DNA of 64,000 nucleotides from Dictyostelium discoideum (Eukaryota): the NCBI GenBank assembly GCA_000004695.1, contig CM000152.2, positions 1-64,000 of the forward strand, written 5' to 3'. The first letter of the stretch is position 1; each line of letters starts with the position of its first letter. A program made the translations under genes and the position numbers. The notes beneath the pieces were generated by a model. The model worked only from the letters and a program-made list of their open reading frames with translations, had not been told where the DNA came from and did no database searches. Positions 16,340-21,157 of this stretch are shown here, piece by piece.

Positions 16340-19300
16340 TTATTGGTATGATGGTTTGTTTTGTAATACTGGCTTATCTAAAAAATTATTATTGTAATGA
16401 TTATTGTTATTATTATTTTTATTAAAAGATTTATAATTTTCAGTATCACTATATTCACTGATGTCATCATCTTCAATATCACTCATACTACTACTGGACT
16501 CAGTATTATAATAATCAGATGACGATCTACTAACTTCACTCATATAAGAATCACTTAGATCTGGGTCATTGAAAGTGTTACTCTTATGTCTATTATGAAG
16601 ATGTTGATGATGATGTTTCTTTGGCAGTGTTTTCTCACCCACATAACCATTTCCACCACTTCTACTTCTACTTCTAGAATAACTATCTAAACTTCTACTT
16701 CTAGATCTACTTCTTGTTCCACTTCTTGATCTACTTCTTGATCTACTTCTTGATCTACTTCTTGACCTACTTCCTTCATTTCTATTTTTATTTTTATTAT
16801 TATTATTATTATTATTATTATTATTATTATTATTATTATTATTATTATTATTATTATTATTATTATTATTATTAAAATCTTTAAATTGATTTTTAATTTT
16901 TGTTAAAAATAATTCAGTTTGATCATCTTGAATTATATCTTCATCACAATTAATAAGGTCACTCTCATTAGTGTTATTTTTATTATTACTACTACTACTA
17001 TTGTTATTTAAAATTAAATTTGAAGAAATGGAACTAATCATTTTATCCAAATGAGTGAAACCACCATTTTCCATTGTTTTCTTTAAATCTATTCGACTTG
17101 AATAACTTTTATACTTTTCAAATAAATTATCAATTTGTTGATAAAGATATTGGTTATTTAAAGATGGTGTATAACTTGTTGATAATTGATATGGAATACG
17201 ATATTGATTGGTTTCATCCATTTGTTTTGTAATTGTAATACAATTAAAATTTGATATTAATCCATTCTTATGATACGGATTAACTATGAATCCAATAAAT
17301 GGTTCAATCATAGATTTATTATTATTATTATTATTGTTTGATGAAGTTGCAAATAAATTTTGAAAAGAAGTTTGAGTTTCAATATCTCGTAATGATGGTA
17401 TTGGTTCAAAGTTTGGATGAGAATGATACCAACCGACAATATCTAAACCAATTGAATTAACCATTTCCTTTGCAGCAATTTGTGAGTTTGGATCCATATC
17501 ACATTGAATATCAGAAGAAATTGAATTACAAGGAATCGCCAATAATATTGTTATGTGATTGGTATCTGGATTAAATTTACCACCCAACATACCAATGACT
17601 TCAGTTGATGAAATATGAGAATGAATATCCATAACGATCATCGTATTTGAACTAACATCGATTGTAAATGGTTGTTCATTTGGATTATTATATTTTTTAC
17701 ATTCAACCAAAGTGAATGGATCAAATGATGGAAATGACGAAAAATCTTCAAAATTATAAAGTTTTGAACTTTCATTAGTTGGTGATGATGATGATGATGT
17801 TTTTGAATTATTTACATTGTTGATTGTTGATGAAGTAGCCATATTAATTTTATCATTTTCATTTCCACTATGTTCAATAGTGGTGTTTAATAAACTTTGA
17901 TCCATCCATTGACCATCATAAAATATTTTTCTTTTTCTTAATGGATTGTTAGTTTTTCTATTCTCTAACATTCTATTTGTAATTGCACTTGATAAAATAG
18001 CTGATAAATCTGATATATTATTATTATTATTATTATTATTATTATTATTATTATTATTATTATTATTATTATTATTATTTTTATTATTATTATTATTATT
18101 ATTATCACGATCATAATCATTATTATTTAACGGGTTTCCAACTGCATTAAAGTTAATAACACCAATTGATTCTAAAAATTGATGAACTCTACCAATTGAA
18201 TTAATATCACTACCACAATCTTTTATTTGATTTCTTGAAAATGTTTTTGAAAGATAGTTTGGTTTAAAGGAATCCCATTGTCTAATAATTTTATCACGAA
18301 TTTTGATATATCTATCAGGTGTTTTAGATATTTGACCAGTGAAATATTCTTTACATCCCATCATTTCCTCTTGTGTAATAATATTTAAGTCTAGATATCT
18401 CTCTTTTGTTGGTGGTTTATTATTATTATTATTATTATTATTATTATTATTATTATTATTATTATTATTATTATTATTATTATTATTATTATTATTATTA
18501 TTATTATTATTATTATTATTATTATTATTATTATTATTATTATTATTATTATTATTACTACTTGAATTATTGATACTGCCAAAACTTCTATTTAAAGGAT
18601 TATTGCTACTTTTATAATTGCTTGTTGTGTATGTTGGTGTTTTTGGAAATGTTGAGATTGATGTTGGTGTTGGTGTTGAGAATGCTGATGATAAAATAAT
18701 GTTTCTTGAAGGTAAAATAAGCTTTGGTTGTATTGGTGTAATGGGTTTACTTGTTGGATTTTTACTTTTACTTTTTGAAGATGATTTCTTACTGTTACCA
18801 CTGCTTCTGCCACTACTACCACCACTACTTCTACCACCACTGCCACCACTACTAATAGTACTACTACTGCTACTACTACTACTACCACTACTACTGCTAC
18901 TACCACTACTACGAGTATTACTTAAATCACTCTTACTAGAAGTACTTTTATTACCATTTCCATTATCACTATAACTACTATTATTACCATTATCATTACC
19001 ATTAAAAAAGGAATTATTATTATTATTATTATTATTATTATTATTATTATTATTATTATTATTATTGTTTTGTTCATTATTATTATTTTGATCATTATAA
19101 TTATTATTATTTTCTACTTCTATAATAGTTTTTTTGGAAGGAGGTCCATTTTGTTGAGAAATTTTATCAAAGTAAATTCTAGCGTGATTTTTAATTTGAA
19201 GTGTATTTCTACTTTTTATTAATGTTGAAATTAATTTCCAATTACCTCTACCATATTTTTCCTAGAATATATTATAATATGAAATGGGGTTAGTATCAAG

Positions 19301-20096
19301 AATAGATACAAAAATCAAAATAAATAAACAAATAAATGATTGATTTTAATATTACAATTGCTTTAAGAAACAATTCATGTTCTTCATTACTCCAAGGTGT
19401 ATTATGAGAAGGTAAATTATGAGAAGAGGAAGCAGCATGTGATTGATTAAATAATTGATCGATATTATCTAATGATTTTATACCATTTTTTTCCAATTTC
19501 AATGCAAACTTTTGTGCATGAGATCTAACTTGAAGTATTGTTTTGGTTTTAACATGTTCTTGAATCTTTTTATTATCCTTATCATATAGCTTATATGCTT
19601 CAACAAATAATCTTTCTTCTTCTTTTGTCCATGAAGATCTCGTAGCTCCACTTATCGTGGTTTTTGGTGTATTATTATTATTATTATTATTATTATTATT
19701 ATTATTATTATTATTATTATTATTATTATTATTATTATTATTATTATTATTATTATTAATATTGAAAGATGTTGAAGTTGAAATTAATGGTTGTGGTTGC
19801 AATGGTGGAGATAATGGAGATAGTACAGGTGATGTTGATGTAGGGAAAATTGAATTTGATAGTCTTTTTGAATTAAAATTGGTATCATTATTAGAATTAG
19901 AAAAAGAAGTTGAAGAGATGCTAGGTGATTGTTGTATTGGTAACTGTTGTATTGGTGATCGTTGTATTGGTGATTGTAGTATTGGTGATTGTTGTATTGG
20001 TGATTGTTGTATTGGTGATTGTTGTATTGGTGATTGTTCTATTGGTGATGGTTGTATTGGTGATGAAGTTTTTGTTTGTGTTGTCATATTTGTCAA
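16340..20096 (-). CDS. MYSM1-like histone H2A deubiquitinase: 2x SANT/Myb, SWIRM and MPN+/JAMM domains
   Basis: Exon 1 runs from about 20096 down to 19356; the track start is TTG and the first ATG is at about 20087. It carries SANT 1 ([28 protein letters not shown]...VRSHAQKF) and the first half of SANT 2 ([13 protein letters not shown]). Intron 19355..19262 is 94 bp (GTAATA..TAG). Exon 2 is 19261..16340, one continuous reading frame checked by hand through several (AAT)n tracts: SANT 2 remainder ([31 protein letters not shown]), SWIRM ([27 protein letters not shown]...[13 protein letters not shown]), JAMM motif (E...[17 protein letters not shown]). It has a Ser/Arg-rich C-terminus. Confidence 0.75.
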
Positions 20097-20104
20097 ATCA
20101 GTTT

Positions 20105-21157
20105 TTATACTGTTGTTATTGTCGTTTTTATTATTATTATTATTATTATTATTATTATTATTATTATTATTATTATTATTATTATTATTATATTATTATT
20201 ATTATTATTATTATTATTACTATTATTATTACCATTAGAAATTCTCCTTATTTTTATGGGTTTTCTTGGTTTGTTATAATCAGTTTCAATTTCACTTGAA
20301 TCACTCTCACTATTGGAGTCACTATCGGAATCACTATAGTTATTATTATTATTATTATTATTATTATTATTATTATTATTATTATTATTATTATTATTAT
20401 TATTATTATTATTATTATTATTATTATTATTGTTGATTTTAGTTTTATTATTATCACTTTTATCAGAATCTGTTGAAATAGATCCAATTAATCTTTGAGC
20501 TTTAATAATTGGAGATGGATGCAAAAATGTGATTGGTTGAGTTATTGGTTTAAACGAGTTTGTGGTTATTTTTATATCACTTTCACAGTCACTATCACTA
20601 CTTTTATTTCGTTCCTTATATTTAAATTTGTTGCTATTTTTATTTTTGATTTTGTTTTTATTTTTGGTTTCACTTTCGTCACTACTACTACCATCATCAC
20701 TACTGCTATCAATACTACTACTACTACTACTGCTATCACTACTGCTATCACTTTTATCAATGCTATAATGTTTATTTTTAATTGGTTTATTTTTGTAATT
20801 ATATACTATATTATTTTTAACAGGTGGAGATTCTTTTATTTTCGGTTTTTTATTAACTTCATTTTTTGGTGTGATTTTAGTGTTTGTTTTTGTGCTTGTT
20901 GATGCAATAGGTTTGGAGGATGTAGATTTTACACTGTAGTTATGAACTTGAGTATAATTATTATTATTATTATTATTATTATTATTATTATTAAGGTTTT
21001 TAGAGTTGATGTTTACATTTTTATTATAGTGATGGTATTGCTCATCATCACTATAATGAATTGACCTCTTTAATAAAGTGACATTACTGACCATGGATTT
21101 CCCACCATTATCAGAATCTGAGTCACCCAAAATATCAATTTCCTCCTCTTCCTCCAT
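20105..21157 (-). CDS. Ser/Asp/Lys-rich low-complexity ORF (350 aa), possibly the true 5' end of the MYSM1-like gene
   Basis: ATG-initiated ([19 protein letters not shown]...). Its stop lies only 8 bp upstream of the MYSM1-like start. The ORF ends by reading an (ATT)n tract as poly-Ile after a 1-nt irregularity (attattattatattatt) at about 20190; the poly-Asn frame is restored into the MYSM1 frame by a 1-nt indel there. Confidence 0.5.

Follow-up and report, generated by a model that had tools for sequence, protein, structure and literature searches.

We analyzed a window of 64,000 nucleotides (nt) from Dictyostelium discoideum (GenBank assembly GCA_000004695.1, contig CM000152.2, positions 1 to 64,000), in which two adjoining open reading frames (ORFs) occupy the minus strand from position 21157 down to 16340. 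The upstream frame, here termed ORF1, encodes a low-complexity protein of 350 codons, and the downstream frame, which is split by one intron, encodes a MYSM1-like deubiquitinase with a SANT-SANT-SWIRM-JAMM layout (Table 1; all positions are those of the 64-kb window, and all features of the gene lie on its minus strand). We consider it very likely that the two are parts of a single gene, the Dictyostelium MYSM1 ortholog mybH, parted by a one-base discontinuity within a trinucleotide repeat. The frames, the domains, the N-terminal motif, the gene order and the coding signal described below are all shown by the analysis.

Table 1. Features of the mybH locus, with positions in the 64-kb window
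Feature	Positions	Strand	Description
Presumed promoter region of the gene	21158..21907	.	AT-rich intergenic DNA (11-16% GC) with long runs of T, common to the gene and its divergent helicase-like neighbor
ORF1	21157..20105	-	350 codons; ATG 21157, stop TAA 20107-20105
ORF1 ATG, context aaaaATGg	21155..21157	-	Proposed true MYSM1/mybH start; position relative to the motif agrees with orthologs
N-terminal acidic motif, residues 4-14	21116..21148	-	Matches [DE][IV]D[IV]xG[DE]; PSSM 34.7 bits; regular expression unique in window
ORF1 in coding frame, codons 1-322	20192..21157	-	Disordered Asn/Ser/Lys-rich N-terminal region with acidic-Ser clusters; codon log-likelihood positive
(AAT)9	20192..20218	-	Asn in ORF1 frame
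AT interruption	20190..20191	-	Single phase break; 1-nt loss from (AAT)30 or 2-nt gain into (AAT)29
(AAT)20	20130..20189	-	Asn in downstream MYSM1 frame; ATA (Ile) in ORF1 frame
ORF1 out-of-frame tail, last 29 codons	20105..20191	-	21 Ile (ATA codons), KTTITTV, stop TAA
Second part of exon 1, downstream frame	19356..20192	-	Poly-Asn, ATG 20087, SPIQ repeats, further poly-Asn tract, SANT-1, first helix of SANT-2
First in-frame ATG after break	20085..20087	-	Starts the short 1217-aa model; 17 nt past ORF1 stop
Pentapeptide (SPIQ) repeats	19923..20063	-	Contain the acceptor of the only frame-restoring intron with plausible signals
SANT/Myb domain 1, SHAQKF type	19494..19631	-	Pfam; residues 510-555 of joined protein
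SANT/Myb domain 2, intron-interrupted	19169..19394	-	Residues 589-632 of joined protein; Pfam Myb match 588-629 crosses the splice junction
94-nt intron	19262..19355	-	GTAATA...TACTAAC...TCTAG; T-rich (51% T)
Exon 2	16340..19261	-	Single open frame, 973 codons plus stop TAA 16342-16340
SWIRM domain	18149..18391	-	Pfam PF04433, 1.4e-18; best solved-structure match human MYSM1 SWIRM 2DCE, 1.6e-24
JAB1/MPN+ domain	17357..17635	-	Pfam PF01398, 7e-13; Rpn11, CSN5 and BRCC36 matches
JAMM zinc motif HxHx7Sx2D	17384..17425	-	Catalytic Glu upstream at 17602-17600
C-terminal (SR)n repeat, lineage-specific	16658..16771	-	Part of the C-terminal tail

ORF1 runs into a tract of the form (AAT)9-AT-(AAT)20, in which the AT at 20191-20190 is the only phase break. 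Up to the AT, the ORF1 frame reads AAT as Asn, and past it the same frame reads ATA as Ile. The other frame is closed by TAA stops upstream of the AT, opens at 20192 (YNNNN...) and runs to the donor site at 19356. Insertion of one A at the AT (T on the plus strand) produces 1574 codons with zero stops, and translation from ATG 20087, where the Met is followed by TTQTK..., yields 1217 amino acids (aa). The ORF1 stop and this ATG lie 17 nt apart, with no AT-rich spacer between them. An earlier note on this DNA had described ORF1 at 21157-20105 as a 350-aa frame ending in poly-Ile after an irregularity near 20190, had proposed that one restored base would bring the poly-Asn frame into the MYSM1 register, and had traced a continuous frame from 19261 through the SWIRM and MPN+ domains; all of this was reproduced from the sequence, with a 1574-aa stop-free product and an exon 2 of 973 open codons to the stop at 16340. 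Its estimate of a gene about 1.5 kb longer was too large, the gain being 1070 nt (357 codons) from ATG 20087 and reaching ~1.5 kb only if counted from SANT-1. Likewise, its description of ORF1 as acidic and Ser-rich holds for the Ser content and for local acidic-Ser clusters, but not for overall charge; the composition is 26% Asn, 17% Ser and 12% Lys, with an isoelectric point of 8.8.

A Pfam scan of the joined protein located Myb/SANT (PF00249) in two stretches (1.5e-22) N-terminal to the other domains, SWIRM between SANT and MPN, and MPN+ toward the C-terminus, which bears out the full MYSM1 architecture of two SANT domains, SWIRM and an intact JAMM/MPN+ domain that had been proposed. The JAMM residues are intact (E1155 and H1214-S-H-x7-S-x2-D1227), and occupy columns with 90% or higher conservation across 106 homologs. 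The second SANT match crosses the splice junction and thereby supports the intron at 19355-19262. The intron has the expected 94 nt; it does not, as had been thought, separate a SANT-1 exon from a SANT-2 exon, since SANT-2 itself is split, its second part beginning EKYGRGNW. In the joined model, 509 residues precede SANT-1. The predicted protein thus carries every sequence feature of the MYSM1 family, and by homology its intact catalytic residues suggest that it may remove mono-ubiquitin from histone H2A (K119ub) or from other substrates. Several further features of the protein are apparent on inspection. SANT-1 contains VRSHAQKF, and the SHAQKF class is best known from plant CCA1/LHY-like proteins, which also supplied the weakest matches of the core-domain search described below. 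Directly before SANT-2 stands LPSHNTPW (19395-19418, minus strand), common to Physarum, Cavenderia and several fungal orthologs. The C-terminal tail (16560-16771, minus strand) comprises a long (SR)n repeat and, beyond it, a His-rich stretch, resembles an RS domain, and is absent from the Cavenderia and Acytostelium orthologs.

The coding signal is continuous across the tract, with a phase switch exactly at the AT. When scored with the codon usage of 20 long ORFs from other parts of the window, the three ORF1 segments outside the repeats reached +0.17 to +0.28 bits per codon in their own frame, with no stops, whereas the other frames over ORF1 scored -0.6 to -3.0 and contained 2-55 stops. Directly past the AT, a positive score of +0.50 belongs to the other frame. 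For comparison, the accepted SANT exon scored +0.30 and the SWIRM-JAMM region +0.47. The G+C content of ORF1 is 22-31%, versus 11-16% in the intergenic DNA at 21200-21900 and 7-11% at 16100-16300. Window ORFs of 200 codons or more hold 26 poly-Asn runs and just one of poly-Ile, the ORF1 tail. Of 14 adjacent AAT-tract pairs in the window, three change phase, and only the ORF1 pair is in coding sequence. The (AAT)n-AT-(AAT)n arrangement with an identical phase-changing AT also occurs at 56483-56511 (plus strand) and 55984-56024 (minus strand), both times in the non-coding interval that separates two divergent genes, one with its end at 55969 and the other with its start at 56545. Such an AT interruption is therefore a recurrent variant of these tracts and is harmless outside coding sequence.

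The start of ORF1 carries a short acidic motif that recurs at the N-termini of MYSM1 homologs, an empirical feature found in this analysis rather than a published criterion of the family. Within the first 20 residues, [DE][IV]D[IV] is present in 37 of 97 Met-starting homologs, against a rate of 8e-4 per residue elsewhere in MYSM1 homologs. The extended pattern [DE][IV]D[IV].G[DE] has a single occurrence across all six translated frames of the 64-kb window, at the start of ORF1. A position-specific scoring matrix (PSSM) built from 27 unique ortholog 11-mers assigned residues 4-14 of ORF1 a score of 34.7 bits, rank 1 of 64,332 stop-free six-frame positions, and the runners-up (at most 25.5 bits) are plain acidic runs. 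The 11-residue PSSM was used in place of a 102-column hidden Markov model of family N-termini, which gave no signal against the six-frame ORFs of the window because animal-specific columns dominated it. In general form the motif reads M-x(2-5)-[DE][IV]D[IV]-[EL]-G-[DE], often then F, and it is found in molluscs, cnidarians, vertebrates, chytrids, Mucoromycota and Amoebozoa. Amoebozoan N-termini include MEEDVDIISE in Cavenderia, EIDIIGEGD and ...DDDEIDIIGEGD in Acytostelium, MDDDEIDIEGDD in Physarum and MAGVEEEVDVDVDGDD in Planoprotostelium; the motif is represented in fungi by MDNDIDIEGDE and MDDLDVDIEGDD (chytrids) and MEEEEFIDIG (Mucoromycota), in molluscs by MAEEGEIDIEGDFD and the bivalve MAEEGEIDVLGDFD, in cnidarians by MAAEDDEVDIEG, and in vertebrates by ...PEVDVEGDGD of lamprey and MAAEEADVDIEGD of koala MYSM1. 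The short model from ATG 20087 is without the motif; the protein carries it only if the gene begins with ORF1.

Searches with the core domains identified 113 relatives, among which the named animal matches are MYSM1, with E-values down to 1e-88 (in a one-way search), and the dictyostelid, fungal and Physarum relatives have the same domain set. No protein of the genus Dictyostelium is among these 113 matches. The best were Cavenderia fasciculata DFA_08302 (P0001, 920 aa; 6e-119) and an Acytostelium subglobosum ortholog (P0003, 628 aa; 2e-97), with 51-64% identity in the aligned parts. These two share with the D. discoideum protein the two-SANT, SWIRM and JAMM layout, LPSHN(T/A)xW before SANT-2, and the acidic N-terminal motif followed by acidic/Ser-rich disordered sequence. 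The stretch from the motif through SANT-1 is one uninterrupted exon in both, as in the joined model here. They differ in having 129-203 unbroken residues before SANT-1, in contrast to 509 residues broken by a 1-nt gap in D. discoideum. The first intron also differs, falling between the SANT domains in Cavenderia and within SANT-2 in D. discoideum. The annotated Acytostelium ortholog (L002 4547-4778; 628 aa) is without the first half of SANT-2 and ends just past the JAMM motif, so its gene model looks incomplete, probably through a misplaced intron and a missing C-terminus.

Compared with human and mouse MYSM1 (2A-DUB, a histone H2A deubiquitinase), the order of SANT, SWIRM and MPN+/JAMM domains is the same, E...HxHx7Sx2D is intact, and the Arg of SLRD that corresponds to mouse R659 is present in D. 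discoideum. The acidic motif at the extreme N-terminus is likewise shared with vertebrate MYSM1, as in the koala protein. The D. discoideum protein differs from animal MYSM1 in possessing two SANT/Myb domains, the first of SHAQKF type, as do Physarum and other dictyostelids. It also differs from the human and mouse proteins in its very long poly-Asn, Ser-rich, SPIQ-repeat and (SR)n inserts, in lacking an MDEKSR..IE.ML.EE.Y motif, and in a frame that is interrupted in the given sequence.

Gene order around the MYSM1 ortholog is conserved within Dictyostelia. Upstream of ORF1 lies a divergent helicase-like gene (21908-25453, plus strand) with SWI2_SNF2, ResIII and T1R_D3 domains, which is 52-69% identical to its Acytostelium counterpart (L002 764-3429). 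The Acytostelium ortholog has its ATG 572 nt from the divergent DEAD/ResIII/SWI2_SNF2/T1R_D3 gene with no gene between, and in the window the helicase-like ORF lies ~750 nt from the ORF1 ATG. The shared divergent neighbor thus places the ORF1 ATG in the position of the ortholog start codon. On the other side, an exon of the emp24/p24 family (15822-16133, plus strand) has a counterpart that adjoins the Cavenderia ortholog (L001 1373-2247; 42% identity). As regards the helicase-like ORF itself, its first ~57 residues, before MENEQEYFYQG, are rich in Phe, Ile and Leu and derive from T-rich DNA, so the true start is probably the later Met of MENEQEYFYQG.

The proposed assignment of ORF1 to the MYSM1-like gene, across a 1-nt discontinuity, is accordingly supported by the N-terminal motif, the microsynteny with Acytostelium, the exon of the orthologs, the codon bias, the 17-nt gap and the unique poly-Ile run. 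Several observations weigh against it. The second motif of the family, MDEKSRxxIExMLxEExxY, is absent from ORF1, where its best score is negative. This motif occurs in animals, fungi and Physarum and is not visible in the Cavenderia and Acytostelium orthologs; it is therefore not defining within Dictyostelia. When ORF1 was compared by BLAST with N-terminal regions from four amoebozoan orthologs, E-values were >2, with no significant similarity outside the 11-residue motif. The short model already has 153 residues before SANT-1, inside the ortholog range of 129-203, so that length alone demands no extension. The orthologs of the closest relatives (D. purpureum and others) lie outside the searched collections, and exact-match scans of metagenome contigs and of prokaryote genome contigs, where contaminants might occur, returned 0 second copies of the tract. 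In favor of a single gene, on the other hand, ORF1 has no homologs as a free-standing protein. No Pfam family matched it above threshold, and a collection of 15 billion proteins contained no exact match to ORF1, to the 1217-aa model or to the 1574-aa joined product. A word-indexed homolog search with ORF1 yielded nothing, its candidate list being saturated by low-complexity words; the full HMMER scan of 1.84 billion representatives that was therefore run instead returned poly-Asn noise only (E ≥7e-5).

Three other accounts of the gene structure were considered. ORF1 could be an independent gene for a low-complexity protein, with MybH starting at ATG 20087 and the motif match being a coincidence or left over from an ancient fission. 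In favor of this are the ATG and stop that ORF1 has of its own, the ortholog-like N-terminal length of the short model and the want of similarity beyond the motif, yet we judge it very unlikely: the motif is the best-scoring site of the window and stands at residue 4 as in orthologs, the distance of 17 nt from stop to ATG leaves no room for a 3′ end or terminator plus a promoter, in Acytostelium no gene intervenes between the ortholog and its helicase-like neighbor, the window has no second poly-Ile (ATA) run like this tail, and the searched libraries contain no ORF1 family. Alternatively, a spliceosomal intron with its donor GTAATAAT at 20220 (or 20232) and its acceptor CCAATAG at 20039 (182 or 194 nt) could remove the break and join ORF1 in frame to the SPIQ region. 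With either candidate an open frame is restored and the donor is of the GTAATA type seen in the verified intron; the overall A+T content is 85%. However, 44 frame-restoring GT..AG pairs arise by chance in the stretch, of which only 20220/20232-20039 have plausible signals, and the candidate contains 59% A and 25% T (30% G+C in its 3′ non-repeat 91 nt), as opposed to 31% A, 51% T and 18% G+C in the verified intron. Moreover, the removed stretch is open and holds the highest coding score of the region (+0.50) in the downstream frame, the acceptor AG falls inside the codons ATA-GAA of a SPIQ-type repeat that is in frame on both sides, and the orthologs have no intron from the N-terminal motif to SANT-1. 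Such an intron also gives no reason for the (AAT)20 being in the downstream Asn phase, and it has at most a slender chance of being real. Programmed -1 ribosomal frameshifting, or transcriptional slippage in the AAT/ATA tract, would have the required direction, the needed shift being -1 within 20192-20108 where both frames are open. Nevertheless, no X XXY YYZ heptamer is present in 20192-20108, where the zero frame reads (AUA)n and the -1 frame (AAU)n, then AAA ACG ACA; tRNA re-pairing between zero-frame AUA and -1 AAU is impossible, and polymerase slippage on a trinucleotide repeat should add or remove whole units and leave the frame unchanged. We regard this mechanism as practically negligible. 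All three of these accounts are disfavored.

If ORF1 and the MYSM1-like frame are one gene, its first exon would extend from ATG 21157 to the donor site at 19356 and would be broken by one missing A:T pair at 20191-20190 inside a would-be (AAT)30. An intact allele would read through the tract as poly-Asn to give a protein of ~1574 aa, consisting in order of the acidic N-terminal motif, a long disordered Asn/Ser/Lys-rich region, two SANT domains, SWIRM and an MPN+ zinc metalloprotease. We infer a functional allele without the break. The remaining possibilities differ in whether the base is physically absent, and we lean slightly toward an error of the assembled sequence or a clone artefact over a real recent deletion, because ORF1 is undecayed and because a real break would leave the catalytic half without efficient translation. 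A gap that is real, at least in the sequenced laboratory strain, we hold to be possible rather than probable. The gene would then be functionally split into a 350-aa product and a 1217-aa catalytic protein from ATG 20087, the latter made from an internal transcription start or by inefficient reinitiation and amounting to a hypomorph or a truncated enzyme without the acidic motif. This account shares with the one-gene interpretation the common origin of the two ORFs and differs from it only in taking the lesion to be physical. The sequence as given does show the break, an ATG lies 17 nt past the ORF1 stop, and deletions are the commonest indel class in the D. discoideum data of PMC7466956. In addition, the mouse Mysm1 alleles Y34X and D32Efs*13 are described in a preprint (bioRxiv 10.64898/2026.02.25.708017) as keeping residual protein by reinitiation at M65. 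These early-stop alleles are hypomorphic, not null, so an N-terminally truncated MYSM1 can retain function. The meander-tail mouse alleles resemble the D. discoideum situation in their early frame interruption, a downstream in-frame ATG and a potential enzyme without the acidic N-terminus, whereas their upstream ORF is only ~35-45 codons long and reinitiation was shown experimentally; the D. discoideum counterpart has 350 codons and is known from sequence alone.

Against a physical gap stands the fact that ORF1 is open with normal codon bias over 322 codons in DNA of 78% A+T, so that any lesion would have to be very recent. The catalytic half would depend on reinitiation past a 350-codon ORF or on an internal promoter, and reinitiation past an ORF of that length is expected to be very inefficient, as is well established (Kozak 2001, through a citing paper); in general, a stop ~750 nt upstream of an intron typically triggers nonsense-mediated decay. 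The mutation accumulation data of PMC7466956 include a high share of 3n indels in D. discoideum, whereas a 1-nt loss is not the slip of a whole unit. Furthermore, mybH knock-outs were not recovered in AX2 according to PMC7190356; this points tentatively to a need for the gene, although the failure could have had a technical cause. It is unlikely that the gap is both real and stable in D. discoideum, as a gene fission into a 350-aa motif module and a separate catalytic protein from ATG 20087; there, termination-reinitiation or an internal promoter may supply the catalytic protein.

Both the gene and the family are already known, and the joined model would be a gene-model correction rather than a new kind of gene. 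The supplement of PMC6873476 lists mybH as DDB_G0277927, with orthologs DPU_G0071646, DLA_07716, PPL_02122 and DFA_08302, and part of the literature already mentions MYSM1 orthologs in "a few Amoebozoan species". A literature search for DDB_G0277927 and the neighboring gene identifiers found nothing. The existing mybH model and ours agree in the locus and in the SANT-SWIRM-MPN protein; they differ in that ours would begin 357 codons farther upstream and depends on the correction of one base. The mybH protein of the database is presumably 1217 aa long, which would equal the model from ATG 20087.

Elsewhere in the window, positions 4154-9598 (plus strand) contain a Ty3/gypsy chromovirus-type long terminal repeat retrotransposon with RVT_1, RT_RNaseH, Integrase_H2C2, rve and Chromo domains. 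It comprises three long open pieces (387, 887 and 539 codons) in a single frame, parted only by in-frame stops, a TGA at 5315-5317 (gag/pol boundary) and a TAG at 7979-7981 (before the integrase). These stops may be read through, as in some retroelements, or may indicate a decayed copy. We take the element to resemble the Dictyostelium Skipper element.

If ORF1 and the MYSM1-like frame do form one gene, the mybH model in the database lacks the first 357 codons, including the only N-terminal piece that is conserved from amoebae to humans. Knock-outs, tagging and expression constructs, and ortholog comparisons for mybH should then use ATG 21157, and the "hypothetical protein" upstream should no longer count as a gene of its own. 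Were the lesion physically present in the laboratory strain, its MYSM1 would be hypomorphic or truncated, with possible consequences for chromatin work on Dictyostelium; were the gene truly fissioned, it would provide a natural test of the function of the acidic N-terminal motif. More broadly, the occurrence of this motif across animals, fungi and Amoebozoa offers a modest, testable lead for MYSM1 biology.

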